DNA from: Lophium mytilinum
Lineage: Eukaryota
Length of the DNA: 64,000 nucleotides
Reading direction: 5' to 3'
Assembly: GCA_010093605.1 (NCBI GenBank)
Contig: MU004186.1
Coordinates: 327,765-391,764 of the forward strand
How positions within the stretch are numbered: the stretch's first letter is position 1; every line of letters starts with the position of its first letter. The notes under the pieces are model-generated. The model made no database searches, was not told the origin of the DNA, and saw nothing but the letters and a program-made list of their open reading frames with translations. Of this stretch, positions 3,786 through 58,083 are shown in pieces. Both the position numbers and the translations under genes were made by a program.

Positions 3786-4234
3786 TCTGTGTACTGTCGA
3801 TGTTGGCCTCTACCGAGAGATTGGACGCGAGGAAGAACTTCTTGAAGGCTGTAGGATATGTGAAGTGGTTCAGATTAAGGTCTCCCATGACTCGATGTTG
3901 GAAAGGACCAATCAGGTCGTGTATAATGCCAGGCCTCGGAGATGGGCGTCGATGCGATTGCATCCACCTAGGTAGCGAGTGGCTTTAGAACATTGCGCTA
4001 GGCAATCAGTATCGCTCGCGTCAACTAATCGCGTTCATTATTGCCGGTGTCATATGATATAGATTTCATATGAAAGATAGGGAGAGGCATCAGGCTTGAA
4101 AGGTGTTTTGCGCACTTCATGATTGGAAATATTAGATCTGTTGGGGTAAATACAGGACGTGGCCGATGCAACAGCGTTTAGCAAGTATAGTTTAAACTCA
4201 CGCATACTTTAAAAGACGGGGTTAAAGATTCTCT

Positions 4235-5304
4235 TCATACAACGATATGAGCTGCTGGTATCTTTCCCCCACAGAATCCCTCAACATTCTCCCCTACCAT
4301 CCGCTCCAGATTCTTCAACGTCGTGTCCGATACCCACGCCGTATGTGGCGACAGCGTTAAGTTCAAGTCTTTGGTGTCTTCTGTTGCGAGAGGGGATGTT
4401 TCAGGTCCTGCCGGCTCCGTAGCGTACACATCTACTGCTGCACCTGCGATCCACTTCTCTTTGAGTGCCTGCACCAACGCAGCCTCATCCATAATCCCAC
4501 CTCTTGAGACGTTGACAAGCACCGCCTGTGGTCTCATTATCTTCAACTCGGGGGTCGATATGAGGTTGATGGAATCTGGTGTTCGAGGTAAGATGAGGAC
4601 TAATACCGAACTCTGCTTGAGCACTTCTTCGAAAGCCGTGTAGCCCTCTCGTATTGTTTTCGCGCCGCGCCGGTCTGCTACTAGGACCTTCATACCCAGC
4701 ATGCGTGCTATGTTGCCTATTTTCTTACCTGCGTATGACCTCAGCAAGTGATCCAACTCATGTCGTGAGGTAGCCGTCACTTACCAATGAATCCATACCC
4801 AACCAACCCCATAACCTCCTCCTCACAAGTCAACGGCATCGTGCCCGTATTATCCTCCAACATGTTTATCAGCGTCCCTCTCCACGGCCATTCGTTCGCT
4901 CTTAGAGCCATATGGGTCTCCACGAGTTTCCTCCGCGCGGCAAAATACAGCCCAATTGCATGCTCACTTACAGAAGAGGCATTCGCGTTGACAGAATTGC
5001 AAACTCGGATCCCGCGCTTTCGGCATGCTTCCAGGTCTATTGTGTCGGTTCCCACGGCCATAACAGCGATGAACTGGAGATGCGGTGATACATCTTCGGA
5101 AAGAACCTCTGCGGGCAAAGCAATCGTGGTCGTGACTAGGATCGTAGCATCTTTTATGCGTTCTGCGACTTGAGCGGGCTGGGTTCGTGGGTAAGATATC
5201 AAGGTATGCGTGAGGCCATTTGGGAGCTTGAACTCAGGAATCGGACTGAAGACTGCTTCGAGGACAACGATGGTATGGTGGGTTATTGCTGTTGCGGAAC
5301 CCAT
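4235..5304 (-). CDS. D-isomer-specific 2-hydroxyacid dehydrogenase (glycerate dehydrogenase/hydroxypyruvate reductase-like)
   Basis: AVGTDTIDLEAC, Rossmann GLVGYGFIG, LVNVSRGGIMDE, DVYATEP, LSPHTAW; one intron near 4730-4785. Confidence 0.92.
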
Positions 5305-5711
5305 TGCGAACTTGGTTTCGAGCTCGATTCTTCAAGGAAGTATTTGGGTCTCGTAGGAAAAGATTTGATATGGAATGTCTGTAGACAAAAAAATAATTGA
5401 AACGTTGAAACTCTGGAATACCTACCCCGGTCATCGGCCTCCCACCACCGACGGGAATCTGCCCCTCATATAGCTCTCGGAGATGGACGACATGCGCCCT
5501 ATGCTTATCGCACTCCACAATTGCGGGGACCGGCATCGAATGGTACGCTACCGAAATGCGCCCTGTTTCCCTTATTAAATGACACTGTGGGACACTTACG
5601 TCCCGTGCGTTGCGCTAAAAGACTATTTTCCTTTCTTCGTTTGCATCCTCATCGTCAAAATCTAATCTGCTTGGTAATTGTTGCAGCAATTTCATTGTAA
5701 TAATTCCAAAA

Positions 5712-6795
5712 ATGGCTCCATCCGCTGTCTCCCTTCCCCCGGCGCCATCGACAAAGGCAGCCCAAGAGGAGGCAGAGCGTACGAGTGGTGATCCTGCATT
5801 GGCGTTCATTCAAGATGAAGGAACTTCGCCGCCTGTATTCGAGGACAAGTACGAGGAGCGAAAGTACCTGAAGCATAGGCTCGCAATTGCGTTCCGCATC
5901 TTTGCGAGTTCTGGATTTGCAGACGGAGTAGCGGGGCATATTACGATGCGTGATCCATTGGATCCGACGAGCTTTTGGGTGAACCCGTTTGGTGAGTAAC
6001 TTTAGTGACACGTATGAGGAAGAAAGCAGGCGAGGTAGTTGGAAAACCCGAAATTGGCTGATATTCATCCAGGAATGCATTTCTCGCTCATCAGAGACGA
6101 AGATCTTATCCTCGTCAACCACGCCGGTGAAGTAATTGATGGAGGAAAGAACCTAAGGCTGAATTACGCGGCATATGCTATCCACGCCGAGATCCACAAG
6201 GCGAGACCGGACGTCACATTTGCTGCTCATTCACACAGCACTTACGGACGAGCGTTCTGCGCGACTGGTAAGCTTCTAACGATTGTCAAGACTGGAATGT
6301 TTGCTGATAAGCCTTCAGGCAGGACACTGGACCCACTAACTCAAGACGCCTGCGTCTTCTACAACGACCACGTGCTCTACGCGAACTTCGCCGGCGTGGT
6401 GTTAGCAGCTGAAGAGGGCAAGTCGATTGCGAAGGAACTGGGCTCTAAGAAAGCTGCACTTCTTGGGAACCATGGCCTTTTGACCGTCGGCCCGTCGATC
6501 GAGGCCGTAGTAGCGTGGTTCGTGCTTTTGGAGAAGTGCTGCGAGGTCCAACTGCTAGCGGATGCGAGCAGTGCAGGAAGCGGAAAGCCACTGGTGAAGA
6601 TTGGGGAGTCAGAAGCCCAAAATACATGGGAGGCGCTTGGAAAGCCGGCGACGGGTTACTGTAAGTCATCTAGGAGTTCAGTGATCGTTCAAAATACTAA
6701 AGGAAGTAGTCATGGGGCTGCCCCTTTTCCAAATAGCAGAGAAGAAGGAATTTGGAGAGAGCACGTTTTTGGGCAGGGGGTTAGAACCGCTGTAA
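5712..6795 (+). CDS. Class II aldolase/adducin-domain protein
   Basis: GVAGHITMRDP, FWVNPFG, AIHAEIHKARPD, AAHSHS and LLGNHGLLTVG metal-binding His motifs. Three introns; last exon ends ...GLEPL* at 6795. Confidence 0.9.
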
Positions 6796-6835
6796 ACTGG
6801 CGCGATAGATGTTTCAATAAATCTGAGCTTTTCCC

Positions 6836-7917
6836 CTACATTTTGCCACTCCTGTAGCCTGGCGCATCATGTTCGATGGCCTGAGCGACCGCAATCTCGA
6901 GCGTATCACTGTCCGTGACACCAAGCTTTTCGTTGTCTCGCTTCTTGTATAAAGTACCTCCTTCAGTCCAGATTCTCCGCAAGGTGAAAAGGGTAGCAAT
7001 GGGATCTCCTTTGTCCCAGGCTTCCTTTTCTAATTGCTTCAACTTGTCTAGCGGTGTGTATGAAGCTTCCCATTTCTTCCCCGTTTGGCGCTCAAACTCG
7101 GCGAGGATTTGGTCGGGCGTGGCAGTGAATGAGTTCACTTTCAAAGCGCGATTGCGGGATACGTCTGGGTGCTTGAGGGCTCCGACGAGGAGTTTACCAA
7201 CGCTATCAGTCGTCAGCAATCGGCCAGCAACTACATAACAAAGACAGAGATAGCTCACTCGGACATGGTGACCAAAGATACCGGATCCTTTCCACTCCCT
7301 AACAGTACAGCCTTTTGCTCTTTGACGTTCCACGATCCTACGGGATTGCTGCCCATGTTTCCAAGGTACAGATCCGCATAGGGACCTGTGACCAAGTAAG
7401 TGTACTCTAGCCGTCTCACAGACTCCTTGATATAGGCCCGTACTTTCAGCTTCAGTTGATGAGGCTTCTCGTTGACGGAATGATCAAAGTATTCGATATC
7501 CGTTCCATACTCGCTGGGGAAGAATCGTATGATGTTCGGGGACTGCTCAGCGAGGCGAATCAAGTTGATTTGTTCTGCTATGACATTTCTGCCGACTGCG
7601 CTGACGACGGTGTTAAATCCTAGACTTTGTATCAATAAATGTCCGCAGGTGGCTTTGTAACGGAGAAGTGTTGTCATTTTATACATACCTTTGTATGCCT
7701 CTACCACATCCTCCTCATTCCTCACGTCTCCCACGATAATCTCAAGCCCATCCTCTCTGAGAGATTGAATGGAATCTGACTTAGTATTCACCGTATTTTG
7801 TGACGTGAAGATAGCTAAACGGCCGAAATCTTCCTTTGCTGCGAGCAGTGCATTGACGATATACTGCCCGATGACGCCGGTGCCCCCAAACACCAGGATG
7901 TCTAACTTTCCACTCAT
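6836..7917 (-). CDS. NmrA-like / isoflavone reductase-family NAD(P)-binding protein
   Basis: [37 protein letters not shown]; two introns. Confidence 0.9.
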
Positions 7918-8390
7918 GTTGACAAAATCGAATGCCTTCTGAGGGTATACAATTGATACTTTGTTGAACACAGTTGCGATGCCGGCGGAGATGCCGGTCA
8001 CCACCGGCACGCCCTGCAGGAACCAGCACTCGTACACTCTGCCCCACTCTTGATGCCCCGCCATATTCTAAGTCGTGCTCAGAGTTAGGTAGGGGTTACT
8101 AGTGTCGGACATCCCCTATCGACATCCGCCCCTCATCGCAACAACGCGCTTTCTGCGAGCCATCGCGAAAAATGGTCTGGAGATGTTGCCGATGGATCAG
8201 GCGGTTTTCCTTATCAGGTTCGGCATGCGTGCGGAGTCAGAACAGTTCTAAGTAGAATAATTCAATATTCCATCTCTTCTTGGTTCCTGCGATATAATTG
8301 TCCTCTTAGTTGAGAAACATTTATTCCGTATCAACTTTATTGCACTTCCATACTCATATTCGTTACTCTTTAACATCATCGTATTTCATC

Positions 8391-9503
8391 ATGGGTAAAA
8401 TCGTAGCAGCTGTCGGCCTCTCTCACGCGCCAGGTGAGTCTATTCATCCTCAATCTTTTCCGTAGCTTGTAACCAAACTGACTTCGTACTGTCCAGGCGC
8501 GCTCGCCTTCCCCGAGACCGCCACCCCAGAAGCCCGCGAGCGCACCGAGAAAGCCACCAGAGACCTAGGCATTAGCCTAGAAGAAGCAAAACCCGACATC
8601 ATCTTCGCCTTCCTCGATGACCACTTCGAGAACTTCTACCGCAACCTCATGCCCACCATCGCCGTCAGCGTCGCCGAAAGCCACGTCGGCCCCGCAGACC
8701 AATGGATGGAAACCCTCCGCATACCCAAGAAAACACATTTCCCCGGCAACCCAAAAGTCGCGGAACACCTCATCCACTCGCTGGTGGAAGATGGGTTTGA
8801 TGTTGCGCGGACGGGGACGGTGGAGTACGGGAACAACCTCATGATGCCGTGGGTGCTCATGCGGCCGGAACTGGAGAACGTGGCGATCATTCCTATTTTT
8901 CTGAACGTGTTCACGCCGCCGTTGATGAAGTATTCGAGGGCGTATGCACTTGGCGAGGCGTGTCGGAAAGCGGCGTTGGCGCTGCCGGATGAAACGTGCG
9001 TTGCGTTCATGTGTACGGGTGGGTTGTCGCATTGGCCGCCGTACTGGAGCCCGACGCAGGCGGGCGATCCGCCCGCGGACCCCTTCCTTGCGCTGATGAA
9101 GAAGTTCCAGACGGAGGGCAAGCCGGTGTTGAAGGAGCATCCCGATCTGTTGGCTAGGTTGGACGATTATGAGATTGAGATGGCGAAGAATAATGAGTAT
9201 CCGCTGAACTCGAAACATCCGCTTGTTAATTGGGAGTGGGACCGAGGGTTCTTGGATAAGTTCTGTGCGGGGGATGGGAAGTGGTTGAGCGCGCTGACAT
9301 ATGAGGAGGTTGAGGAGGAGGCGGGACATGGAGGGCATGAAGTGCTGAACTGGGTGGCACTTTCTGGAGCTATGAACAGCAGTAAGGCGAAGATGGTGCT
9401 GTATGAGCCGGTCGTGGAGTGGATTTGTGGGATGGCTTATGTGGATTTCGAAATCGGAAAGGAGACTAACGGGGCGACGAATGGCAGTAACGGTACGCAC
9501 TGA
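8391..9503 (+). CDS. Class III (LigB/MhpB family) extradiol ring-cleavage dioxygenase
   Basis: Spliced N-terminus MGKIVAAVGLSHAP|GALAFPE (intron ~8434-8497). Motifs PDIIFAFLDDHFENF, IIPIFLNVF, TGGLSHWPP, GHGGHEVLNWVA match the His/His/Glu iron-ligand pattern. Confidence 0.88.
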
Positions 9504-9666
9504 GTGCGATGTTCAGTCTTTTTGGACATGGTAGTCGAAAATAATTTTCCGTGGTTTACACAAGCTTTCTGTATCAAACTTCATGGCTCTGTCGATTTCT
9601 GTAGAGCAGTAGTTTTAAGCGTAAAATCATGTCGATGCTGATAGTCTACTCTTGTCGCCTCAGTCG

Positions 9667-11850
9667 TCAAAATACTAGTCCCAGATCATCTAAACGGAGG
9701 GTATGATCTAACAGCGCGGTACCGGGCGTCCCGTCGGCAACCTCCGCGTTCGCCCCCATATCAAAGAAGTCCTCGTCGATATCAAACAGGCTGAAATCGA
9801 AAGTCCCCAAATCTTCCACATGCCTGCTCCCGAATCTCAACTTATCAAGATGAGCAGGACCGGGATAAAGAAGCCGCATGAGCTCCGCATCTTGCGTGGA
9901 GTCTAAGCTAGTCTCCGGATTCGATACCGGAGAAAACACAAACGCCAAAAGCGGTCCAAGCATTCGTTCATAAACTCCGGCGTGGTTTGATACTTCAGAC
10001 CACCCTTGCGACGCAATGCTGAGGAAGTTCGTTGTGAATATCTTAGTCATGTCGAAGATCTGGCTTGGGTTGTATTTCTGCGTAATACTCGCCTGGCCGT
10101 GCCGGAGACAGAATAGCAGGACCATGGCTGTTTCTAGAGTATGATGCGCCGACATCCAAGGACGGCGGAAGAAGCCAGAGAGGATGTGCTCACGGTGGCT
10201 CCGAGCTGATAGCGCTGCGGCTTCGAAGGCGATCAAGAGGCTCCGCTGTGATGGCATTGGCGTCCTTCCGGACGGTCGGTGAAGCATCGTAAGACCCCGT
10301 GCTAATGCAAACTCTACGAGCTCGCTGTTGGTGGCTTCGGCCTTTGATTTGTCGTACCAGGCTTGAAGCTTTTTCTCCATATTTTGCAACCAATCGTCCC
10401 AGGACATTCCCACGGGCAAGGGTTGTCCTTGAAAATGGATCTGAATCATTTCAGATTGAAGTTGATGATAGTGAATTTGATCTAAGAAGGGCCTTGAGCT
10501 CAGTCCAGTGACACCATCATTCATGTAGGGGAACTGGGTGTTGATGGCGGCATCCGGAATAGAAAGCGGCCTCTGAAGAGCAGCACATACGCTGCGATCG
10601 ATACAATATGCACTCCAGAAGACGCTACGTCTAAGGTTTAAAGTTGTAGTATCCATGCCATGGGTTTCAGGAGACTCTCTATGCAATCCGAGCTCCTGGA
10701 GTCGAAGCGGTTAGCCCTTTGTACTTTACCTCTAGCTGAGATTGCTTGGGAAGAGGTTAAAAAGGACTCACTAATGCCGACCGCATAGCCGCACCTGATA
10801 ATATCCATACATTAGCTGAGCGAGGGTTTATTGTCGCATATAGCAGAATCAGAAGATTCATCTGAATCCCCGTGAAATCTGAGGAGGCATCCGGCTGACT
10901 AGGAAGATGGCGGATCCCTTCTTCGAAAAGCGAAGACGAGAGAGACATGCATCGCGACTCGTGCCCTCCTTTCGCGCTACCAAGCGTGACAGATATCGCT
11001 AAGATCAAGTAGATAACCAGAAATCCGTGGTCAGGCATGACCAAACAGTTCTGAGAGTCTTGTCTACTGATTTGCAGGAAGCTTAACACGTGCCTTAGCT
11101 GGTCCCAGATATCTGGCTCGTGCAGAAATGGAAACTGAGGGAGCACTCCCTGTACATACTTCTTGACTAGACTTTGGATGATCTCAATTGGAATGTTGCG
11201 CAAGACTCGCGTCTCAACGACCTGGGCTTGTACAGAGACTGCGTTTGGACTGACGCTATTTCTTTGCAGGTCGTTCACGTTCGTCACAGCCGTGCTCGAA
11301 GATGGAGTGAGGCCCATTCTTACTCTCGAGACTAGATCAGTCAAACCCGATCCGTAGGGCAGAGTAGCAGAAACCATAGATTGCAGCTCTCGACTATTCA
11401 TGATTGAGGAAGTTAAAGGATCCTGTGATGGAACCGGTTGAGGTTCCGCGATATCCAGGGCCCAACGAGGACTACTATCGACAACTGTGCCATTGAGCTG
11501 ATGTCCAGATGAGTCTTGATTGAATTGTAGTAAGATATCAGATGCGTTGAGGGCATCAAGATGACCTCCTTGGGCAAGCTCCGTCTCCAATCGCGCAATC
11601 TCATGCTCGAGGTGCCTTACGATGCTGCGAGGGACCTCGGTGGAAGAAACAGTCACGCTGAAGCCGGTACACGTGGTCTTTGCTCTCAAGCATGGAGTAC
11701 ATGCTGGGAGCTTACGATCACACTGCCTGGTGTTAGTGGGCAAAACTGGGACGCGTCGCGCGAATCTACGAAGAACAATGAACGCACCTTCGTCTTTCGC
11801 CTTCTGCATCTCCCACAGCTGAGCACACTCCTCGAACACTCGGTGGACAT
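9667..11850 (-). CDS. Zn(II)2Cys6 transcription factor with fungal-specific TF domain (Ppr1/UaY-like)
   Basis: Spliced MSTECSRSVLSCGRCRRRKTK|CDRKLPACTPCLRAKTTC; LRRSVFWSAYCIDRSVCAALQRPLSIPD. Confidence 0.9.
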
Positions 11851-12675
11851 TGTTTTTTACGGACTTCACCGCCATCAAGCCCTGCGCATCCATCATCGCG
11901 GAGAGGTAGGGAGAAGTACGAGGTGGAGTCTCGGGTCGCGCAAAACGGTCCGAAAGCTGCGGTGCCTGACTCAGGTCAATTGCAAGGCTTATCAGCAGCC
12001 CCGGCTTGACTCCCGATCGGCCCTTTTGTATGGATATGGAAAGGGGGCTAGAGCGCTGTTCTCCGACGACATTGTTCATTCCTCCATGTCACGCGTACCC
12101 TCTCCAATCTGGTCGTGTTGGAGAGGAAACGACGTGTCGAGACACCTCAACAGCGGCAAGGCAGTATGCACAGACTGCAATAGTAGAAAAAAACTACGTT
12201 GGTATATGATGGGAGCCAGATCATGCCGTGACACATGATAGGGCATCGAGATTATCATGAAGCGTTATATCATTACCCTCTTCACGCCAGTCTGATTCCA
12301 CTTGGTAAGCCTCAAAGACAGTATCGTCTCATTTTTACATTGCTCTCATTATGGTGGAATGCGAGTTCATTCACTTATACTCGTAATCGACGTCGCTCTA
12401 CAGCTTTGATGTCTAAAATGATGGACTAGCATCTACTTGTTGAGGGAGCGCTGCCGCAATTGGGTCTTCGTGTCTTTATGCAGGGTCTCCAACGGTACCG
12501 CTCTTCTCCGGGAGTGCCCTGGAGGCCTCGGTGCCACTCATAAAGGAATGAGGACTAGTCAAGCGGTTACGGTCATTCTCCGATCGCGGAGTGTCCATCT
12601 TTGCTATCCAGAAATACTCACTCACTCAAAATTTCGTTCTGAGATTCATTGTTCTCATCCTCTCATCATTTCATC

Positions 12676-14449
12676 ATGGCTACCTATGAGGCCGTCGAAC
12701 GAACAGCTAGCATCCAACTACCAACTCTCTCTTCAAGGTATGAGCCTCTACAGACCAATGCCTTGCGTACAAATGCAACGCTAGAAGCAGCATGTGCTTG
12801 GGGGAAGTGAGTATATCATCTTTCAAGTCTAATATCTCTATTGACACCATGTCCAGTACTCCAGACGGCGGCATGAGTATGTCTCTTCCCCCTAAACCAG
12901 CCCCTCAAACCGTCATAAAATGACGGGCCATGAGTCTATGCCTACCCGGTCGCCACTGCTTGGACTACTCCAATGAGTCTCAAATTTCTGAACGCGATGT
13001 CAAGCTCCCAGCATTGCAATTAAGACTGCTCTTCGTTCACCGGCTATTGACTAGCTGAGCTCCTCCTCCCAGTAGCAGCCAGTGAGCAAAGTTGGAGCCA
13101 AGCAGTGACAACTCCATATGCCCAGACTCACGGCCGAGTACTGTAACCCAAACACTAACACTACAAAGACCGCCTCGCCTCCAACGACGACGACAAACGC
13201 GTCCGAGACTGGTTCATCGCCGAAACCTCCAAATTCGGCTGCCACCACAAGATCGACGCCATGGGCAACATCTTCGCCATCCGGCCCGGCCAAAACAACG
13301 CCCTCGCCCCCATCGGCCTCGGCTCCCATCTCGACACCCAGCCCACTGGCGGCAAATACGACGGCATCCTCGGCGTTATCTCCGCCATGGAAGTTCTCCA
13401 GACCATCCACGAGAACAAGATCACCACCTACGCGCCCCTCGCCGTCATCAATTGGACGAATGAGGAAGGCGCCCGCTTCCCGCCCGCGATGCTGTGCTCG
13501 GGTGTCTGGGGTGGGGCGTTCACGACGGAGTACGGGCACTCGCGGACGGATCCGGAGGGGCTGACGTTGAAGGAGGAATTAGAGCGGATTGGGTATCTGG
13601 GGGAGACGGAGTGTTCGTTTGAGAAGAATCCGTTGACGGCGCACTTTGAGGTGCATATTGAGCAAGGGCCGGTGCTGGATCAGGCGGAGGAGGCGGCGGC
13701 AGTGGTGAAGGGGGTGCAGTCGATTAGGTGGTACAATGTGGGCTTGGTGGGGAGGGAGGCGCATACGGGGACGACGCCGATGAATAGGAGGAGTGATGCG
13801 TTATTGGGTGCTGCGAAGATGATTGTAAGTGTACTGCGAGGGTGTTTGGAGGTGGTTGCTAATTGACGAGAATAGGTTGAAACCAACCGCTTCGTCACGG
13901 AAGGTGAAGTAGCTGCTCGAGGTGGCCGTGCCACGATCGCTGTGATCAACTCGTCGCCGCAGAGCATTAACACTATTGCCGGCCATGTGGATTTCGGACT
14001 CGACATCCGAGCACCTGCAGATTCCGACGTCGAGCTCATTGAGGCAATGTGCCGTAAAAGGTTCGCGGAAATTTGCGACGAAATCGGCCTCGAAATGACA
14101 TTCGACAACTTCTGGGTCTCACCCGCGGTGAACTTTGATCCTACGATGATCGAGTGCGTGAGGAGTTCTGCGCGAGAGATTGGATGCACGACGGAGCTGG
14201 TGAGTGGCGCAGGACATGACAGTGTCTACACGAACAAGAAGGTGCCGACTGCTATGATCTTCGTGCGTTGTCGCGACGGTATTAGCCACAATCCGGCTGA
14301 GTACACGAGACCGGAGGAGTAAGCCATTCTATTCCTACTTTGAAAACACTTGCTAACACTTAAAAAGTTGCGCTGCCGGTGCTCAGGTGCTTCTGGGTGC
14401 GTATTTGCGATATGATGATTATCTCAGGAGAGCAGCGGCAAAAATGTAG
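12676..14449 (+). CDS. M20-family N-carbamoyl-amino-acid amidohydrolase / beta-ureidopropionase-like (Pyd3/allantoate amidohydrolase family)
   Basis: GGMNRLASNDDDKRVRDWF, GSHLDTQPTGGKYDGILGV, WTNEEGARF, HFEVHIEQGPVL, HTGTTPM, SGAGHDS, GISHNPAEY; four introns. Confidence 0.93.
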
Positions 14450-14680
14450 AGCTATAGATATCACAGTTTCCGTAGCATGGTTGGGGGCCGCGGGTTGATA
14501 ATTATTATCGTGTATTTACTTACAATCAGTCTTTGCATCTTGAAATGGAAAGCTGTGTCAATATGGGGGCATTGAGATAAGAGTAAAGTCATGAAGGAAT
14601 TGTCACTCATTAAAGCGTATGCGCTAATGTGCTCTATGATTTGCTGAAGCTATGTTTAACATCTTTAGTATCTCAATAAT

Positions 14681-16347
14681 CTAACGTCCAATAAACTTCA
14701 ACTCTAGGAAGCGCAGCGGAGCGTATACTATAGCTGCCCAGGACATAGCGAGTGGGATTCCCAACTACATAAAGTTAGCTGAGAGAAATCAACTCTCGTG
14801 AGTGCAAACTTACATCAGCGCCATTACCAACGAGTTTTGCGATGGGACCAGTGTAGTAAGTCTGGTACATTCCCATCACAGCACCTACCCATCCCACACC
14901 GAAGCCGACGAAAGCAGCATAGCCTATAGGCAAAGCCGACTTTACATTCCAGTGGGACCAGTCATAGCCGGACTTGCGACGGAAAATCAGTTGCTCTTCA
15001 ATAGTCATAGCGACCTGTGATAAGTGTCAAAACATGGCATTGGTTGAATAATAATGCGGATGGAACCCACCCAGCCCACAGTCCAATACCCAATAATACT
15101 CAAGAAGTTGATGAAGATCGAGAATAAATGATCACGGCCACCAATTGCGCAGGCAAGATATATGATGACTGTGACTGTGCTCCAGATCGGTTGCGGAACC
15201 TTAGCGAACCACCGTCCAAACATTTGCCAATTGAGAGCAGCCGCGTAGGTTCCCGGGATATTGTTTGCCGTAACGCAGATAGCGAGGATAACGGCGCAGA
15301 ACTTGCCAAAGTTGCCTAGAGGAGCGAAGGCTTCGACGATGAGGGCGCCAACGCCATGGCTTGAGAAAGCAGCAGCGAAGTCCGGGTTGGTCGTGAGTCC
15401 GCTGCCGAGACCGATGCCTAGAAACTCGATGAATAGCTTACCAAACACCATTCCGCATGTTGTCATTGCGAAGACGAGGTATTTGTTGGTCTGAGGTGGG
15501 TAATAAGAGTAGTAGTCGGCTGCTGCGGAGGTCCATCCAAGGGGCCCGGAAGCAGTGAGGAAGAAATAACTCAATCGGTTGCCAGCAAGAACTGCGCCAG
15601 AGCCAGCACTTGATGTGGTGATGTCGAACTTAGGGCCAGCAACGCCGATGAGGATGAACAGTGATATGACAGTTGGTGCCCAGACGTAGCTAAGGAGATC
15701 AGCTTAGCTCCAGAGTTTCACAACATTCGGGAAGCGTGCTCACCTTTCGAACTTATGGAACCACCTGATACCAAAGGTTGCGACAACCCAAGAAATGAGG
15801 GCGCAGACAACAATGCCAGTGATCACAGACATGCCGTGGCCATTGACTGCGCTCAGAATAAGACCTCCAACCAAGCAATCAATGACTCCATAGCCAAGCT
15901 CAATAACTAGATTGAGTAGAACGCAAAGCTTTGAAGGCCACCATCCCATGGTATACTTAGCAATGATCAGTGTTCGCAAGCCTGATTGAGGTCCGAAAGA
16001 AGAGAGGTATCCAGAACACATAGCACCAAATATCGTTCCGAACATGCAACATCTGATCTTCTATCAGCTCAGGCAACATCCTATGTTTGGTCAAATACTC
16101 ACAGAATGGAATCCGTAAAGCCCAATCCATAAGCTACCGGGCCCAATATCCCTAAAGTCATCTGGTTCGCGGTGCAGTTGATCGAAAACCACATGACAAA
16201 CATGTGGACGTAATCGCCAGTCACCACCTTCCTCGCTCGCAGCTCCTCGGGAATTCTTGTGATACCTTGACTCTCGACACCCAAAGCTTTATCAAGTCGA
16301 CCTGCCCACCGTTGGAGTTTGTTCTGTTGAGCAAGGGGATCGCCCAT
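14681..16347 (-). CDS. NCS1 nucleobase:cation symporter (Fcy2/Tpn1 purine-cytosine permease family)
   Basis: GVESQGITRIPE, WFSINCT, FGPQSGLRTLII, GWTSAAADYYSYYP, NNIPGTYAAAL, NFLSIIGYW, M-YQTYYTGPIA. Start codon uncertain. Confidence 0.9.
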
Positions 16348-17127
16348 CTCTTCCACGCCGCCCTCGCGGACGCTGGACGATGAAGTGACTGGCTCGACGA
16401 CCTTTTCGTCCTTATTGTAGAGGGATGGAGAAAGTTGACTGAAATTGGATACGATGGAAAATAACTGTTCGCAATTCAAGATTTTCGGTTCGGGTCTGAA
16501 TGTTTGATCCTTCCAGATGTTTATCACTTACTCCGCGGTTCAGATAAATAAGGCGCTAGCGAAGGTGGGCGCGGTACGCCGATCCGATCCTGGAAATGAT
16601 AAAGCATACGACGGGACGGTGCGCTCTTTGGGATTGCTATCTGGGAAGATCAGCAGATTAGAACGATAAAGAGGGCTACAGAGTCATGCTCTACCATCTC
16701 TGATACGCCCGCCTAGCAGAGATCACAGTTCGACGGGTTTGGTGGACGCGGATGTCCGCGCTAATCGGCCCTAATACCCAAACACCGCTCCCATGGTATC
16801 TGGATAGCTTGACAGCCAGATCTGGACCCAAGGCAGTGGTAAACCGGAGTGAGTGCAGGGTGGTTCTAGGCCTTTCTGAAGTATTACAATCTAATACTGT
16901 ATAGTTTCAGAAAATCGTGGAGTGAGCGGGATGCTTCAAGGAAAGTATTGTCCTTTCTGATTGCCGTACCACTATGAGACCCCGGGTAAGTTTCGAGCAT
17001 TCAAAACATAGCCCAGATGCTGTCTTTACAAACCTCGTCACTTGACGCGGTCCAAACATGAAAGAGAAAATAGGTGTGTACGAGCAGTAATGGACTAATA
17101 TCATCCTAGTAGTGCAGTATCGCGTTG

Positions 17128-18557
17128 CTATACCACTTTTGTTACTTGTGGGATAGAACTTGCCGTAGAGACTTTCGAGTCATCCGATGCGTCAACAGCA
17201 CTCAATCTACTTGAAAGCTCCGCTAGAAGGTCGTACTCCATCACCCACCGCATACGTTCTGCTACAGCCCCTGGCGAAAACTTCTGACTCCAAAGTTCTT
17301 CTGGAATATCTGCACTCGCTAGCTTCCCCGTCTCGTAGCTAGTCTTCGTGATCTTATCCGTTCGCGGCTTTCGAAGATCTTGGAAAAATTGAAAGGCACT
17401 TTCTGTGTCTGCTGATTGCCAATTGCTCATGACTTGTGCCAGTGCAAATCCGGATTCGATTGCCATACAAGCTCCTTGACCTAAATGCTGTTAGCGAACG
17501 TCGCGTGCACATACTACGTTGTGAAAAAGGATCCTACCTTGATGTGGAAGAGTCGAGTGAACAGAATCACCAATTAAGATTATGCCAGATTTCTGCGAGC
17601 TTTGCGCTGAGTACCACTTAGGCGTCGGGTCTCGAACATATAAAGTCTGTTTCAGGATTTTGCCATCCTCTGCTCCTTTTCGTAGGCCATGTATGATCTC
17701 TTGGACTGCTGGACTCCAGTCCTTGACGTGTTCGTAAAGATCGTCAACAGGCGCTTTCGCCAGCCAACTCTCGGATGTCCAGCCTTGGAGGGGCTCGGTC
17801 ATGAATCCGATTATACCAACTCGGTCAGTTTTAGATTCTTCATTTCCAATAGGCAGGGTGAGAACATGTCGCTGCGGTCCTCGGAAATTGACCGTTTTCC
17901 GTAAGAGATCGGCGGTTTCCGGAGTCAAGTCATCGTAGGCAACGTAGCCACGATACACCATTTGGCCGGAGTAAATGGGCTCATCGGTGAAGCCAAGATG
18001 CTGTCGCACTTTGGATTTGATTCCGTCGCAACCTACGACGATATCTGCTTTGGATTCCGTTCCATCTTGAAATTTGATCGTGTAACAGTCATCTGCCTCG
18101 TTGCGTTCAATGGCTACTAGCCGCTTCCCCTTGCTTATCTTTGAGTCAGGAACGTTCTTCTTCAGGACCTCTATCAAATGTGCGCGATGAATCTGCCGCG
18201 ATCGAGGCTCGCCAAACTCATCAATCTGTCCCAGGAACTCTCCAGTTCGGTAATGTCGGTACTCCATGTAACTCGGCGGGTCATGAGAGGACTTCCAAAG
18301 CATGTCATCCTTCAAGCCAAAAGCGTCGAGAACACGATTGGCATTGCGAGTGATATTGACACCTGTGAAAGGTTAGTAAAAGTTGTTGAGATTTCGTTGC
18401 CTGACTCTAGAAACTTACCAGCTCCAACTTCGGTGAACTCAGGCGCGGCCTCGTAAAGGTGCACATTTTCTAAGCCAGCATATAGAGCCGAGTTCATGAA
18501 GGCCATTCCTCCAATGCCGCCCCCAATTACCGCTATCCTCTGCCCTCGGAGAGCCAT
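17128..18557 (-). CDS. FAD-dependent aromatic hydroxylase (salicylate hydroxylase / 6-hydroxynicotinate 3-monooxygenase group)
   Basis: RIAVIGGGIGG, EAAPEFTEVGAG, IHRAHL, VVGCDGIKSKVR, LIGDSVHSTLPHQ|GQGACMAIESG. Confidence 0.92.
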
Positions 18558-18914
18558 GGCGTGAACGTATTGGTGACAAGAGCGGTGATTTCGAAGGCAC
18601 TTTCGTCGTCAATGTAGGTAAATGTACACCTTTGACGCGCCTGTCGATGGGATTTGATGTGGACATATTGGCTATTGTATGATAGTGATGGAACAGGTCC
18701 TCTTTCAGATGGGCCAGTGGTGTGAGGGCTGAAGCGCTCATCGCCGACGCGACGCTTTTCGGAGAGAAGTGTGCGGGGCGAGAAACGACACCAACTTTCG
18801 ACATGACTCGTGAGAGGCCGGAGGATATCCGACCACCGCATCGCCCCCGCCGCCCTTTCATCAGTCTCACCGTTGTTCTCCGATACAGCTGCTTCGCAGT
18901 CCCCTCGTACATGG

Positions 18915-20921
18915 ATGTCGACGTCAAGAGAGCTTATTCAGCAGCTGCTTTCGACCTGCCAGAGATGTAGGCGATTGAGGAGAAAATGCGATACGCTATT
19001 ACCAGACTGCAGACTGTGCCGCAAGGTCTGTACCCCCCTTAATGGCCATGACTATAGACTGACTTCTTTGCCAAAGGCTGGTGTAGAGTGCTATCATTTT
19101 GACCACGCGCTACAGCAATCGCTACCGCGAGCGTAAGCACCACTTATGCCTCTCATCTCTCGTTTTAACCCATAGTGCAGATATGTTCATTCTCTCCTTG
19201 CCCGTTTAGAGCATCTCGAGGCTGTGAAACGCACCGCTGAAGGACCTTCTGATCAGCAGGATGTCCCACTCCCTGTGCTGCCTGATACTCCATTATCAGA
19301 CAATCTCTTTCCCCATGCATCTCCGTTCCAAACCTCTCCGGTGGTTATTCGAGAACATGCTCCCGATAGCGTCGAGTATTACTCATACTTGAAGAACGAC
19401 CAGATAGACACGTTCGATAAACATTTCATCATACCGTCAGCCGCTGGGAGATCGCGTTTCTTCGGTGCAAGCTCCGTATTTACTATCTCTGTCGAACTCT
19501 ACCATCATGCGATAACCACTGGTCTCCTTCCAGAAGGATCTTTGAGTCTCCCCGTATCACGAGACAATGATGAGATGGAGCCTGTAGAGCCTGTGGCTCT
19601 ACACTTCAACCACCAAGCTCAAGCTGAATCCGTCAGGGAATTGTGCAGATTCTATTTTGTTACCTCGAACGTTTTGTATGGATTCGTGGACGAACATCTG
19701 GCAGCGAATGACATCCAGGCGTATCTTGACCTCAAAGATAATCCCCGTCTGAATCCGCAAGATCTACGAGGCATGGAAGCGCATCAGTACTTCAGGGTGA
19801 GCATGATGTGTGCTATTTCATGCTCCACCCAGGCTCGACATCGACACAAACGGCTTGTAGAGGGTATGGAGTACTACCAAAACGCCCTAGATTGTGTCGA
19901 GGAAGTCACCTCAGAAGTGACCCCATCATCTTTGCAGGCCCTGTTGCTTCTTGCTATCTTCTGCCTCTTCCACCCCCGGAAGGGTGACATCTGGAAATTG
20001 CTTGATTACGCGTGTAGGCTCAGCGTAGAACTGGGTTATCATACCGAGCAGCAAGTGGAACTAGAAACCGAGGCACAGAAAAGGCTGCGTCGGTCGACAT
20101 TTTGGGGTCTCTATGCAATTGAACGAATCGTTGGCCAGCTCTTTGGGCGTGGCTCTGACCTCCCCGAACCTATCATTACGACCGAATATCCGCGCAGCCT
20201 TTCCGCTATCGACAGCATGGATCAAGCCTCTGTACAGCCGATATCGATCGCACATCATTATCGACTGGTTTATCTACGGTCTGAAATATTCCGGGATCTT
20301 TACATGCCCGCAAACCCTCCTCAGTTCGAATTCGACTGGTATCGCGATCGTTTCAGTACGCTTCACCTTTGGCGACAAGAACATCTAGTTTCAGACGATG
20401 ACTTAGCAGGACCCGGAACTATTAGCTGTGACGTTGGCTATAATTCCACGATTTGCTTTTTATTCCAGCCACTGCTGCTTGTCGCGCTTCGGACCACAGC
20501 AACGAAACACGATGGCTCGTCGGTAGACTTGAAAGCTATACCACAGGATAATTACTGGTCAGCTTGCGCATTGATTCGAGCATACGAAAAGGTTATTCGC
20601 GCTCCGGAGAAATCAGTACTAGGCGCGTATCCAATGACGTTCCTCTCTGCACATTACATCTATCTTGCCGGTGTCACATTGATGGCTCATGCTCTACTTG
20701 CAATCGACGGCAGAGTGCCGGTCTTAAAGCCAATGTTGCAGCTTAGAGAGACACCAGAAATTGGCTCACTAGATTTCACCACTCTCTACGAGATCTCAAA
20801 CTCTTGCCTAGTATTGCTTTGTTTTTGCGCGGAAAGATGGACGGGAATGGAAGGGATGCAATATGCATTCAAGAAGCTTGCCGATAAAGTCATTCCTGCA
20901 CTTCTCAGAAGACAGCCTTGA
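18915..20921 (+). CDS. Zn(II)2Cys6 transcription factor with fungal-specific TF domain
   Basis: CQRCRRLRRKCDTLLPDCRLCRK|AGVEC; RLRRSTFWGLYAIERIVGQLFGRGSDLP. Confidence 0.9.
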
Positions 20922-20933
20922 CGACGTGATAGC

Positions 20934-22118
20934 TCAATACGTGGCTGTGAGCCGGTTTACCATCCATTCGCCTGGATATATCGGCGAATACTTTTTCGGC
21001 CTCTGCTCATCGAAGCAAGTTTCAATAGTGTTAACCAGGCGGTCGTGGTCTGGATGTGCGAAGTACTACGTCGGCTTTGTAAGTTTCTCGGCATCGATCG
21101 TAACAGCATAGCAGAACTTACTGCGATAGAGTAACGCGCAGAGAACGATCCATCATCCGTGGTCGGCGCGCTGGGTGGCGACACAACTCGGTGGTTTGTT
21201 GATTTGATAACATCATTGGTCCATATTTGCAACATGTCCCCTGGTACTCATGTTTAGCAAGGCATCCCATTGCTTGCAATGGAAGCTCATCACCTGAGTT
21301 TATCACAACCGCTCCTTCGATTGGCTCGACATCTTGCCACTCTCCCTCTGGTGTCCGCACTTGTAATCCACCACTCATGTCCTGGAACAGCAACGTAACC
21401 GTTCCATAGTCGGTGTGCGATCCTGCACGGACAGTGCCAGGTTGCTCTAAAACCTGTTTTGATACAACGGGATAGTGCAAAAGCCGTAGAACATGATCAC
21501 CAGCAGTAACGTATTGCTTGAAAAAGTCTCTGTCGAGTCCCAACCCCTCGGCCACCGCACAAAGGAGCTCATGATGTAGCTCATCGCAGCTCTCGTAGAA
21601 TGCCCGCATCGCCTCGCCAAAGTCAGGGAGCTCAGTATCTGGGTAATGATTTTTCCATGGCTTCGCTGGATAACGACCTGCATCACTTCCGATCTCCAAG
21701 GATTCTTTAAGGTCTGGCACTGCGGCACGCAGCTTCGCAATCGAGGCTTCGTCTTTGCTGTCCAAATCAAGGTTGGTTACTTTTTCGACGCCCATGCCAG
21801 AATATCCCCGATTTGCTTCCTTGTTGACATTCGGATGCTTGTCTTTGACAGATTTTGGGAGAGCAAAGTATTGTCTACTCCATTCGAATGCATTAGCTGG
21901 AGAGAGGCCGCTGTTCGTGAGGTAGAGGAATCCCGAGGTGGTGAAGCCGCTAATGATCTCCGAGACGCAGGCGGCCTTTTCTTCCAATGTGCCGTGGAGG
22001 TATTTGGAGAAGTCTATGAGTGGAATTTGAAAAGACGACTTTTGGTAGCTATGTCAGTTAAGCTTTTTCTCGAGTCACAGCCTACGCAACCTCATACCTT
22101 GGCTTCGAGTTTAGTCAT
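20934..22118 (-). CDS. 2-oxoglutarate/Fe(II) dioxygenase, thymine-7-hydroxylase-like (DIOX_N + 2OG-FeII_Oxy)
   Basis: IPLIDFSKYL, ANRGYS.GVEKVT, PDLKESLEIG, LRLLHYP, VRAGSHTDYGTVTLLFQD..GGLQV, KSTNHRVV, RYSIAYF, C-terminal RLTATY. These motifs resemble Neurospora thymine-7-hydroxylase as recalled; not aligned. Confidence 0.88.
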
Positions 22119-22912
22119 CGTGAGCGAAATATCAGCTTTCTTTATTCTCAAATTTTTAACAACACCTTGCGCGCCTCGTATGAAGGTAAAAAGAGTCTCT
22201 AGGCAGGCCAGCCATTGTATATACCATAGGTCTTGGTTCTGTCGATGAACTGGGGTCGTGATAAGGCTCTTTCAAGCGCGGGCGGTGTTCTCCGATATTC
22301 ATTCGACGGTGATCTAGACTTATCCTCATATTTTATTAGTCACGTGCTATGTTATGATACCTTTATTTAGGACTCGTTTGAAAGGTAGCCAAAGAACGAT
22401 GACGACAATCTGTATAAAAGAGTTCTAAAAGTACTCTTTAGTACTCTAATGCTTAGCCGGCACAGGTACGTTTCCCCACCCCTCACTATTTCCATTGATA
22501 TCTTCCAAAGTCCGAAGTACTAATCAGCCAGTCATATGCACATGATATCAATGCTGCGATCGAGTTCCAAGTATATTACTTCCGACAGCCTGAGAATTTT
22601 CGATACAGCCCCTTTCATAGGGCCCATGGCGATGCCGTGGTAATAGAATGTGTTTGAGCTATGTTCAAACACATTGCAGGGAATAGCAGTTGCGTTATAC
22701 AATACTTGCGCTAAAAGTACATTGTGACAGTGCAGGTCAACGATTCAAGTGCATCGAATGCATTGTTCACTTACGTCGCATAAATACTGCTAATATTCAT
22801 GGACTCTTAAACCCATCATCGCTCAGGGTGGTATTTTCATCTTAATTCCCATTCAACAGCGACGGTCGGCACGCTCTCAGCAGACGCCCTCATTGCCAGC
22901 CCACGTACCGCA

Positions 22913-43100: not shown

Positions 43101-43933
43101 AGGTTTTGTCCCCTTGCGGTCGACCACTAACTCTACGACGACTCGGGACGGGTGCTGCTCGCCCGTGGAACCTGCTCACCGAGCTGGAGAAGCGACGCGC
43201 TGTCTCGCCCGTCTCGAAGTCTGTCGGCCAGTGATCGCAAGTCCAGGAACAGAGGTCTCTGCCAGAATCTCCCCCCGGCCAGTGACAAATAACCCGATCG
43301 AATATAGCACGCTGCCGCTGTGTTCGGGCCTCCCGCAAGCTGGCCGCTGCACTCCCAAATGACTGGCCGCCGAGCACTCCTCCGGGTTTTGCGGGGCGGC
43401 TATTTGGGCCTGACCACCAAGCAGCCTCAAGTTCCAGAATAGAGTCGCGACCGACTAGGTGCCAGCTGAAACGCCTCGACCGGAGCCGCCTCTGAATGCT
43501 AATTCGCAGAGGTCGCGAAACGGGTCCTGTTCAACCTCGCGGTACGTACTGCTCTTTGTTTCATCGCGCCAAGCCTGCTTTGTGGTGAAGGACATAATGC
43601 CCTGGTCCTCCCCCCACCACTTCACTCTTGCACCTCCTCATTGTTCTGCGGCGTGGCAAATCCTCGGCATTTCCTTATTGTTCCTTTGTTCTATTGTTCT
43701 GCCTTGCCTGTAATTTCATAGTAATATTCCTTCTCTCCGCAAAATCTCTGGCAGATTTTTTCTTCTACCTCCACCCTGCTACACCCGCCCAAGTCTTGTA
43801 GCGCCTCTTTGTTCAACTCTTTTTTGGCCACATCCATCATTCCATCACACCTTCGCCTTCCTCGACTAGACCTGCCTTTTTTCTAACGACTTCCGCCTCC
43901 AGGTTGAGGCTTTCAACTCCACCTCTCGTCGTC

Positions 43934-48693: not shown

Positions 48694-48741
48694 AAGGTAA
48701 GAAGGTAAGAAGGTAAGAAGGTAAGAAGGTAAGAAGGTAAA
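48694..48741. repeat. (AAGGTAAG)n short tandem repeat
   Basis: About six tandem 8-mers read directly. Confidence 0.85.
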
Positions 48742-49444: not shown

Positions 49445-49644
49445 TGTTAGGGCTTAAGGTTAGAACGTTGGAATTATTAGATTAAATAGTATTAATATTA
49501 ACAAAAGATAAATATAAGAGAGAAAGAGGTTCCTAGGACGGACGTTATAATAACCTAAAGGGCGGAGCAACGTTTACCTATTCTATAGAGCCTCTATTAC
49601 GTAACCTCTAGTTACGTGTTATGCGCAATTATATAGCTATAATA
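49445..49644 (-). repeat. 3' LTR
   Basis: Direct repeat of 57884-58083; begins TGTTAGGG. Confidence 0.93.
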
Positions 49645-57883: not shown

Positions 57884-58083
57884 TATTAGGGCTTAAGGTT
57901 AGAACGTTAGAATTATTAGATTAAATAGTATTAATATTAATAAAAGATAAATACAAGAGAGAAAGAGGTTCCTAGGACAGATGTTATAATAACCTAAAGG
58001 GCGGAGCAACGTTTACCCGTTCCGCAGAGCCTCTATTACGTAACCTCTAGTTACATATTATGCGCAATTATATAGCTATAATA
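57884..58083 (-). repeat. 5' LTR
   Basis: Direct repeat of 49445-49644; differences are mainly C/T and G/A transitions. Confidence 0.93.

Follow-up and report, generated by a model that had tools for sequence, protein, structure and literature searches.

A putative catabolic gene cluster lies in a 64-kb stretch of the Lophium mytilinum genome (GenBank assembly GCA_010093605.1, contig MU004186.1, positions 327,765 to 391,764). This whole stretch is called the window here, and positions are counted from its first letter. Stop-to-stop open reading frames (ORFs) across the window were scanned with Pfam (21 ORFs, and then 70 ORFs of at least 110 amino acids [aa]), exon models were built by hand with scripts, and the products were compared with relatives of solved structure and with homologues. 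Between positions 8391 and 22118, Pfam recovered, in this order, LigB, Fungal_trans, Peptidase_M20, Transp_cyt_pur (NCS1), FAD_binding_3, Fungal_trans, and DIOX_N together with 2OG-FeII_Oxy. These are the families, in the same order, of the seven contiguous genes that the original prediction had placed in this interval, and the limits given there coincide in our gene models with the two outer start codons, namely, the ATG of the LigB gene at 8391 and that of a thymine 7-hydroxylase (T7H)-like gene at 22118. The spaces between the seven genes measure 12 to 826 nucleotides (nt), and therefore no further gene fits between them. The left limit is the one part of the interval that had to be moved, since three genes upstream of the LigB gene also belong. 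The predicted cluster comprises ten genes and extends from approximately 4236 to 22118.

Gene models and splicing support

From left to right, the cluster begins with a D-2-hydroxyacid dehydrogenase of the glyoxylate/hydroxypyruvate reductase kind (337 aa; 4236 to 5304, minus strand; one intron at approximately 4728 to 4784; Pfam 2-Hacid_dh and 2-Hacid_dh_C). A class II aldolase/adducin-family protein resembling NovR and CloR follows (5712 to 6857, plus strand; exons 5712 to 5991 and 6073 to approximately 6857, with an uncertain 3' end; Aldolase_II, 1.5e-31), and its upstream exon is supported by conservation in two metagenome contigs, L048 and L056, described below. The third gene encodes an NmrA/isoflavone reductase-like NAD(P)H reductase (318 aa; 6838 to 7917, minus strand; introns 7203 to 7258 and 7619 to 7687; NmrA, 4e-18). 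The LigB gene, assigned below to the PydA-type class III extradiol dioxygenases of the LigB fold, is next (349 aa; 8391 to 9503, plus strand; exons 8391 to 8433 and 8497 to 9503; PF02900, 6e-29), followed by Zn2Cys6 transcription factor 1 (TF1; 680 aa; 9667 to 11850, minus strand; exons 11850 to 11788, 11722 to 10771, and 10694 to 9667; Fungal_trans) and an M20 amidohydrolase of the hydantoinase/carbamoylase family (443 aa; 12676 to 14449, plus strand; five exons, including a predicted 20-nt exon at 12857 to 12876).

The right-hand part of the cluster encodes an NCS1 permease of the purine-cytosine (Fcy/CodB-like) kind (485 aa; 14681 to 16347, minus strand; five exons, with a leader intron at 16641 to 16694; PF02133), a group A flavin adenine dinucleotide (FAD)-dependent aromatic monooxygenase (437 aa; 17131 to 18557, minus strand; three exons; FAD_binding_3), Zn2Cys6 transcription factor 2 (TF2; 635 aa; 18915 to 20921, plus strand; exons 18915 to 19022, 19074 to 19132, and 19181 to 20921; Fungal_trans, 1.3e-14), and a T7H-related Fe(II)/2-oxoglutarate (2OG) dioxygenase (338 aa; 20934 to 22118, minus strand; exons 22118 to 22098, 22038 to 21294, 21240 to 21122, and 21065 to 20934). 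The Zn2Cys6 motif was present in both transcription factors after splicing, and the FAD-monooxygenase exon was 100% identical to a 438-aa NCBI protein annotated for L. mytilinum.

One public sequencing run (X1), presumably of RNA, covers the region, and its contigs were used for intron joints and not for expression level. Short stretches with GT..AG ends, in the orientation of the gene concerned, are missing from the contigs. Among 15 listed joints (of 24), 13 fit the gene models: four coding and one leader intron of the permease; two introns each of the FAD enzyme, the NmrA-like reductase, and TF2; and one each of TF1 and the 2-hydroxyacid dehydrogenase. The TF1 joint is the intron at 10695 to 10770, and one X1 contig piece ends at 11722. 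None of the 15 listed joints supports the introns of the LigB, M20, aldolase-like, or T7H-like genes, so these intron models were drawn from homology alone. The N-terminal exons of the M20 gene were placed against the uninterrupted reading frame of L048. Retaining this N terminus calls for the 20-nt exon followed by a 292-nt intron, a model that comes from the alignment and not from RNA.

Two features of the X1 contigs concern transcription across gene boundaries. On the plus strand, the TF2 contig continues without a break into a spliced transcript at 20934 to 22465 (GT..AG joints 21079 to 21129 and 21770 to 21849), which covers the entire T7H-like gene in antisense orientation. This transcript could reflect an extended 3' end of TF2, or it could act as an antisense regulator of the dioxygenase gene. 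In addition, a single contig spans the FAD-monooxygenase and permease genes, which lie in tandem on the minus strand.

Conservation of the cluster in other fungi

When metagenome contigs were scanned with the LigB protein, 48 loci were obtained, two of which (L048 and L056) look fungal. L048, a 46-kb contig, carries homologues of all ten genes at 3494 to 20996 (within 17.5 kb), in a changed order and orientation. Amino acid identities to the window proteins were 68% for LigB, 61% for the FAD enzyme, 59% for M20, 58 to 69% for the T7H-like enzyme, 45 to 58% for the NmrA-like reductase, 51% for the aldolase-like protein, 48 to 49% for the 2-hydroxyacid dehydrogenase, 46% for the NCS1 permease, 42 to 44% for TF1, and 39% for TF2. 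No window ORF beyond these ten has a match in L048. An amino acid permease gene that adjoins the cluster (2106 to 3503, minus strand; AA_permease_2) was considered and rejected as a member, having no homologue at L048. The shorter L056 (4.5 kb) contains the aldolase-like, NmrA-like, and LigB genes in the same order as the window, and a gene model of Diplodia seriata is a fusion of Aldolase_II and LigB. The original prediction was to be given up if its genes were not clustered in other genomes; the ten families recur together in L048, and from this contig we judge the clustering to be more than chance.

The LigB protein is 95% identical to its counterpart in Mytilinidion resinicola. The LigB and FAD enzymes have the same longest-contig size, an indirect sign of co-location, in nine named species (of Mytilinidion, Lophiotrema, Lophiostoma, Amniculicola, Whalleya, and Thozetella, together with Sporothrix curviconia, Paecilomyces lecythidis, and Rhinocladiella mackenziei), and by the same indirect measure the T7H-like gene joins them in four of the nine. 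Locus tags are adjacent in P. lecythidis (008277/008278) and three apart in R. mackenziei. Carriers presumably are spread patchily over the Dothideomycetes, Sordariomycetes, Eurotiomycetes, and Leotiomycetes, and we take them to include trunk pathogens and beetle-associated fungi.

A PydA-type ring-opening dioxygenase

The LigB domain matched PF02900 at 101.3 bits (cutoff, 26.3) and contains the motifs SHAPG (residue 11), DDHFENF (residues 55 to 61), GGLSHW (residue 189), and EWICGM (residues 322 to 327). The 3-hydroxy-4-pyridone dioxygenases, i.e., PydA of Rhizobium TAL1145, Hyphomicrobium, and Bordetella, share DDHFENH and EWICGM (PMC3637104), and PydA has been placed in Pfam02900 (PMC7356986). 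In the window protein, EWICGM is intact and DDHFENH appears as DDHFENF. The best NCBIfam model was NF009913 ("putative dioxygenase"), at 406.7 bits against a model cutoff of 462, and the next was MhpB, at 127.8 bits. We infer that NF009913 stands for PydA.

Sequence comparisons pointed to the same bacterial family. Among the matches listed, the fungal orthologues were followed by many bacterial proteins at approximately 47 to 55% identity, and the window protein is 44 to 57% identical to 18 bacterial relatives. In a plasmid search, the matches near 50% came from one Novosphingobium record and five records of legume-isolated rhizobia, and the next matches were at 33% or less. The plasmid of a Leucaena rhizobium encodes an "extradiol dioxygenase" that shares 50.5% identity with the window LigB across 92% of the length of the latter, and after the gene for this plasmid enzyme lie genes for an alpha/beta hydrolase, a binding protein, an ATP-binding cassette (ABC) ATPase, a permease, an FAA-family hydrolase, and RidA.

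A midpoint-rooted tree of 39 rows was built from 18 named fungal matches (from 120 listed), the window protein, and 20 of 24 hand-picked bacterial loci; the other four were left out on account of stop codons (L031, L033, and L020) or a frameshift (L024). The 19 fungal rows formed one clade (100/100) inside the bacterial rows, beside L001 and L015 (100/99). The fungal dioxygenase was probably acquired from Proteobacteria. At 70 of the 91 alignment columns that are at least 90% conserved in 18 bacterial sequences, the same residue occurs in at least 90% of the 19 fungal sequences. A different residue is fixed in the fungi at a single one of the 91, where His is replaced by Phe at the seventh place of DDHFEN[H/F] (LigB residue 61, at approximately 8612 to 8614). 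Residue 61 is a candidate specificity switch.

The original prediction had named a LigB dioxygenase. Its family assignment was confirmed by Pfam, and the motifs, identities, and tree narrow it to the PydA type. The putative ring opener of the cluster is a member of this bacterial family of 3-hydroxy-4-pyridone (3,4-dihydroxypyridine) 2,3-dioxygenases.

Bacterial neighborhoods of PydA-like genes

Scanning bacterial genomes with LigB gave 47 loci, which together with the 48 metagenome loci make 95; without L048 and L056, 93 were treated as bacterial. Families within 8 kb of the dioxygenase gene were counted at the 58 of these 93 loci that are at least 10 kb long, and Pfam was run on 99 ORFs from 12 loci. 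The most frequent neighbors were RidA (34 of the 58 loci), FAA hydrolases and ABC ATPases (31 each), and alpha/beta hydrolases (25), followed by FAD monooxygenases (15), molybdenum hydroxylases (10), and NCS1 permeases (5). Breakdown of 4-hydroxypyridine through 3,4-dihydroxypyridine uses a hydroxylase, a dioxygenase, a deformylase, and an acylpyruvate hydrolase (PMC7356986), and the predicted products of the bacterial PydA-like neighborhoods are the enzyme set of this pathway. At four loci (L007, L032, L034, and L053), an FAD monooxygenase 29 to 31% identical to the fungal one is encoded directly 3' of the dioxygenase.

The neighbors are not uniform. At five loci (L008, L019, L022, L023, and L063, mostly Acidocella genome loci, with L022 and L063 from other records), the PydA-like gene is near an NCS1 permease gene, and at L008 a HpaB-type two-component hydroxylase stands beside it, replacing the ABC transporter and the group A flavoenzyme. 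Given these NCS1 and HpaB-type neighbors and the molybdenum hydroxylases at 10 of the 58 loci, the PydA family appears to serve several upstream routes.

A separate group of T7H-like dioxygenases

The 2OG dioxygenase matched the structure of Neurospora crassa thymine dioxygenase at 2.7e-64 and, weakly, TropC at 1.7e-9. For comparison with T7H, we took the best 120 of 1,557 matches, kept the 88 of at least 300 aa (32 were dropped), added the window protein, and formed groups by identity, without a tree. Two groups were evident among the matches listed: 16 cluster-type sequences with 59 to 90% identity to the window protein and 73 canonical sequences with 50% or less, many of which are named "thymine dioxygenase." One gene of each group is present in Verruconis gallopava, in Xylariales sp. 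PMI_506, and in Pleurostoma richardsiae, and the cluster gene is therefore taken as a paralogue. The cluster group differs from canonical T7H at 15 group-specific positions.

In N. crassa T7H, the base is contacted by Asn87, Glu122, Arg190, Tyr217, Phe292, and Asn294 (PMC4787775). The sole contact changed in the cluster enzyme is Asn294, which is His, and the N294A substitution in T7H leaves activity unaffected (PMC4787775). The thymine-7-hydroxylase-like dioxygenase named in the original prediction has the T7H fold, ligands, and most of the contacts. By the identity groups among the matches listed, the cluster gene is no orthologue of the canonical T7H group, with 50% identity or less.

The remaining enzymes and the permease

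The M20 exon matched solved carbamoylases and beta-alanine synthase at 4e-66 to 1.6e-57, the latter value being that of beta-alanine synthase, and one exon alone reached TIGR01879 (hydantoinase/carbamoylase amidase) at 204.4 bits (cutoff, 204). No equivalog-level model was reached by M20. Peroxisomal targeting of M20 was considered from its C terminus (-AKM), which resembles a type 1 targeting signal (PTS1), and was dropped; the L048 protein ends in -ALE.

Solved relatives of the FAD enzyme include tropone 2-monooxygenase, TropB, NicC, and salicylate hydroxylase, and the MHPC oxygenase matched at only 1.7e-8. The substrate pair of NicC is His211 and Tyr215, as cited in PMC9304392. Assignment as a NicC-type 6-hydroxynicotinate 3-monooxygenase was not supported by this pair, of which the His is kept and the Tyr equivalent is Leu (HVLTL); in the bacterial monooxygenases that adjoin PydA, the Tyr215 equivalent is Phe. 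The aldolase-like protein matched 4xxf (6e-45), the decarboxylase NovR (3.6e-40), and TqaM (2e-27), and the HMPDC decarboxylase 2z7b at only 3e-7.

The NmrA-like protein matched an A622-like structure (5e-20) and A622 (7e-19), the latter being an NADPH-dependent reductase of the pyridinium ring of nicotinic acid N-glucoside (PMC13184244). We treat this kinship as a lead and not as membership. The best solved relative of the 2-hydroxyacid dehydrogenase is the glyoxylate reductase 5aov (4e-22). The permease matched PF02133 and TIGR00800, and its look-alikes in Protein Atlas are named "cytosine permease family" or "cytosine/purine permease." The M20, NCS1, FAD hydroxylase, and two Zn2Cys6 families named at the outset were all borne out by Pfam, motifs, and structure matches.

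Proposed pathway and its alternatives

We consider it somewhat better than an even chance that the locus is a fungal catabolic cluster, not described before, for a substituted hydroxypyridine or 4-pyridone-type N-heterocycle used as a source of nitrogen and carbon. What was observed is the set of genes, their recurrence as a cluster, the kinship of the dioxygenase to PydA, and the separate grouping of the T7H-like gene, and the steps are assigned from family membership. The purine-cytosine-type NCS1 permease would import the compound, and the T7H-related 2OG dioxygenase would oxidize a ring methyl or hydroxymethyl group or carry out an N- or O-demethylation. The resulting carboxylate might then be decarboxylated by the class II aldolase-like protein before the FAD monooxygenase hydroxylates the ring; alternatively, the FAD monooxygenase alone might perform a decarboxylative hydroxylation. 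Either way, the product would be an intermediate of the 3,4-dihydroxypyridine (3-hydroxy-4-pyridone) type. The PydA-type LigB enzyme would open its ring adjoining the nitrogen to give an N-acyl (formyl or acetyl) imino-2-oxo acid, from which the M20 amidohydrolase would strip the acyl group, the imine releasing ammonia. Processing of the 2-oxo-acid/aldehyde fragment, in place of the bacterial acylpyruvate hydrolase, would fall to the NmrA-like reductase and the 2-hydroxyacid dehydrogenase, possibly together with the NovR-like aldolase protein. The two Zn2Cys6 factors would act as regulators of the cluster.

Candidate substrates are vitamin B6 vitamers or 4-pyridoxate, NAD-derived 4-pyridones, alkylated 4-hydroxypyridines, and N-alkylpyridinium acids. 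Vitamin B6 stays a guess because similarity to the enzymes of its degradation is weak, as seen in the values for 2z7b and the MHPC oxygenase. In outline, the pathway follows the original prediction, whose logic of import, side-chain oxidation, hydroxylation, LigB-type opening, and amide hydrolysis in a catabolic N-heterocycle cluster is still the best reading, its steps likewise being assigned from families. The first-choice substrate was a pyrimidine, and this we no longer favor; the PydA family of the dioxygenase, the separate T7H-like group, and the kinship of the NmrA-like protein to the pyridinium reductase A622 fit better with the pyridine, vitamin B6, or nicotinate derivatives that had been offered as the alternative.

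Several points weigh against a hydroxypyridine or pyridone substrate. M20 belongs to the ureidohydrolase/carbamoylase family, whose characterized members act on N-carbamoyl compounds, and an N-formyl imine would suit this family less well than a pyrimidine or a ureide. The T7H-related enzyme retains the iron (HxD...H) and 2OG (Arg/Ser) ligands as well as Asn87, Glu122, Arg190, Tyr217, and Phe292. In LigB, the score for NF009913 is below the model cutoff, the His-to-Phe change sits inside the signature motif, adjoining a probable metal ligand, and could mean an altered substrate, and PydA itself is known from genetic evidence alone, the enzyme reportedly never having been purified (PMC3637104). 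The bacterial partners also differ. By tblastn, no homologues of the M20, T7H-like, aldolase-like, or NmrA-like proteins were found in the 47 bacterial genome loci or, L048 and L056 apart, in any of the metagenome loci, and Pfam scans of the window ORFs showed no alpha/beta hydrolase, RidA, FAA hydrolase, or ABC transporter. Thus, all that the fungal and bacterial loci have in common is the ring-opening step and, in a loose sense, the hydroxylase. Further, the direction of transfer is not fixed by the LigB tree, since its root is the midpoint. Regarding conservation, equal contig size is indirect evidence of one contig, and contig sizes differ among the genes in Phaeomoniella chlamydospora, Xylariales sp. 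PMI_506, Capronia coronata, V. gallopava, and Exophiala viscosa; thus, either the cluster is not intact everywhere or those five assemblies are fragmented.

The strongest rival, although we regard it as unlikely, is the oxygenolytic pyrimidine route of the original prediction. NCS1 would import thymine or a 5-alkyl uracil, the T7H-like enzyme would convert it to uracil-5-carboxylate, the FAD enzyme would produce 5-hydroxyuracil by decarboxylative hydroxylation, the PydA-like enzyme would open the C5-C6 bond, and M20 would cut a ureide of the formyl-oxalurate type. The match of the 2OG enzyme to N. crassa T7H (2.7e-64), with the Fe and 2OG ligands and five base contacts retained, is in line with this, as are the match of the M20 exon to beta-alanine synthase (1.6e-57) and to TIGR01879, the nucleobase family of the permease, and the many decarboxylative hydroxylases among the near relatives of the FAD enzyme (NicC, salicylate hydroxylase, and vanillate 1-hydroxylase). 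On chemical reasoning, 5-hydroxyuracil is an aza-analogue of 3-hydroxy-4-pyridone, with the same 3-hydroxy-4-oxo pattern para to a ring nitrogen. The original prediction had also pointed out that no isoorotate decarboxylase was visible, and indeed the Pfam scans of the window gave no match to Amidohydro_2, the family of that enzyme. Against these points, the 2OG gene lies outside the canonical thymine dioxygenase group, with three species that have one of each and 15 group-specific positions; the bacterial relatives of the dioxygenase sit in pyridone or hydroxypyridine contexts; and the aldolase-like, NmrA-like, and 2-hydroxyacid dehydrogenase genes, all kept in L048, would have no obvious role. 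We know of no organism with a 5-hydroxyuracil ring-cleavage activity, which also counts against the route, or indeed with oxygenolytic pyrimidine chemistry of this kind. The route stays alive because of the ureidohydrolase family of M20, the retained uracil contacts, the motif change in LigB, and the small number of enzymes common to the bacterial loci. That the cluster constitutes a fourth, oxygenolytic route of pyrimidine catabolism through the 5-carboxylate, 5-hydroxyuracil, PydA-type opening, and a ureidohydrolase is a claim that we find a little more doubtful still.

Degradation of carbocyclic plant or lignin aromatics or of aminophenols, through a salicylate-type hydroxylase and meta-cleavage, an amide or amino conjugate being handled by the permease and amidohydrolase, seems improbable. 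The names under which databases list the orthologues ("protocatechuate dioxygenase subunit beta" and "salicylate hydroxylase") and the solved relatives of the LigB enzyme (MhpB and LigB) would suit it, as would the named carrier species, which we take to be mostly fungi of wood, bark, and trunks. However, the MhpB/LigB-type models score far lower than the PydA-type model (127.8 versus 406.7 bits), and the protein has the PydA motifs. Nitrogen heterocycles are indicated by RidA, molybdenum hydroxylases, and NCS1 permeases in the bacterial contexts, and carbocyclic degradation offers no ready explanation for the conserved NCS1 and M20 genes. In Valsa mali, a LigB-domain gene, which may belong to the PydA-type family, is listed as a horizontally acquired "plant toxin degradation" gene (PMC5025739) and would also suit carbocyclic degradation.

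A biosynthetic cluster that tailors a secondary metabolite, e.g., a pyridone or tropolone-like product, is highly improbable. In its favor, tropone 2-monooxygenase and TropB are among the solved relatives of the FAD enzyme, NovR and TqaM, relatives of the aldolase-like protein, are biosynthetic, and the 2OG enzyme weakly matches TropC (1.7e-9). Against it, T7H is a far better match for the 2OG enzyme, and an importer-type permease, an amidohydrolase, and a ring-opening dioxygenase are all part of the cluster. Domains of polyketide synthases, nonribosomal peptide synthetases, terpene cyclases, or prenyltransferases were not seen in the Pfam scans of the window, of which no ORF beyond the ten matches L048.

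Other features of the window

Outside the cluster, the window contains a cytochrome P450 gene (36232 to 37925, minus strand; PF00067, 1e-40) and two long ORFs without a Pfam match (26251 to 28248, 666 aa; 43802 to 46195, 798 aa). The G+C content falls from approximately 50% to 27 to 34% over the last 17 kb (47000 to 64000). This AT-rich block resembles the repeats degraded by repeat-induced point mutation in some ascomycetes.

Comparison with known systems

To our knowledge, and in keeping with the title of PMC9304392, the nicotinate (hxn) pathway of Aspergillus nidulans is the sole eukaryotic route of pyridine-ring degradation worked out so far. The original prediction had called the cluster undescribed, and a literature search, in which most subscription journals are missing, found no fungal PydA-type cluster and no fungal 3,4-dihydroxypyridine pathway. 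What appears to be new is the placing of a known bacterial ring-opening enzyme within a new eukaryotic combination of enzymes for N-heterocycle catabolism. On a reading less radical than a new pyrimidine route, the cluster could be the first eukaryotic pathway of vitamin B6 or NAD-derived 4-pyridone breakdown. If hydroxypyridine or pyridone catabolism is the true function, the cluster would represent a second and mechanistically different eukaryotic solution to the pyridine ring, with oxygenolytic fission by a bacterial-type PydA enzyme. Its parts would be a dioxygenase that was probably transferred, a thymine-hydroxylase-like gene that arose by duplication, and, replacing the bacterial hydrolases, an M20 amidase. 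The cluster also provides testable candidates regarding what becomes of hydroxypyridines, pyridones, and vitamin B6 in fungi, the function of HxnY-like dioxygenases, and the biochemistry of PydA.

Bacterial vitamin B6 degradation pathway I employs the HMPDC decarboxylase, the MHPC oxygenase, and the AAMS hydrolase. The fungal cluster has the same families in a similar order (class II aldolase fold, group A flavin monooxygenase, and N-acyl hydrolase). In contrast to that pathway, to which the similarity is weak, ring opening here would be carried out by a PydA-type LigB enzyme and not by the flavoenzyme. With thymidine salvage, i.e., thymine 7-hydroxylase and isoorotate decarboxylase, the cluster enzyme has in common the T7H fold, the ligands, and most base contacts. 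Unlike in that system, the T7H-like gene falls into a separate group, no match to the isoorotate decarboxylase family was found in the window, and the gene is clustered with ring-cleavage and amidase genes.

The hxn cluster, the nearest eukaryotic system on record, is also fungal and controlled by a transcription factor, and it encodes the T7H-like 2OG dioxygenase HxnY and the NicC-like FAD enzyme HxnX, the likeness being by description (PMC9304392). The domains of its molybdenum hydroxylase HxnS, old yellow enzyme-type reductase HxnT, cyclic imidase HxnM, and amidase HxnN were absent from the Pfam scans of the window. The hxn pathway reduces the ring and opens it hydrolytically (PMC9304392), and it is without LigB and M20, as the original prediction had said, whereas the cluster described here has the oxygenolytic LigB.

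The kpi cluster for 4-hydroxypyridine in Arthrobacter sp. IN13 resembles the fungal cluster in having an NCS1-type permease (KpiP) and an FAD_binding_3 monooxygenase (KpiA), which makes 3,4-dihydroxypyridine ahead of extradiol cleavage and deformylation (PMC7356986). It differs in that KpiC has the amidohydrolase fold and not that of LigB and the deformylase KpiB is an alpha/beta hydrolase and not an M20 enzyme (PMC7356986). When the kpi and Agrobacterium 4-hydroxypyridine enzyme set is compared with the window, the permease, monooxygenase, and dioxygenase families are present and the deformylase would be M20, with no FAA hydrolase, the family of KpiD, in the Pfam scans.

The closest relation in the ring-opening step is to the pyd genes of Leucaena rhizobia (PydA, the hydrolase PydB, and the transporter PydCDE in Rhizobium sp. 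TAL1145), with the same ring-opener family, approximately 50% identity, and the LigB fold. The motif His of pyd is Phe in all fungal members, and, in the Pfam scans of the window, the PydB-type alpha/beta hydrolase, ABC transporter, FAA hydrolase, and RidA were not seen in the fungal cluster. Beyond the pyd set, the fungal cluster adds the T7H-related dioxygenase, the M20 amidohydrolase, the NCS1 permease, the aldolase-like, NmrA-like, and 2-hydroxyacid dehydrogenase proteins, and two Zn2Cys6 factors.

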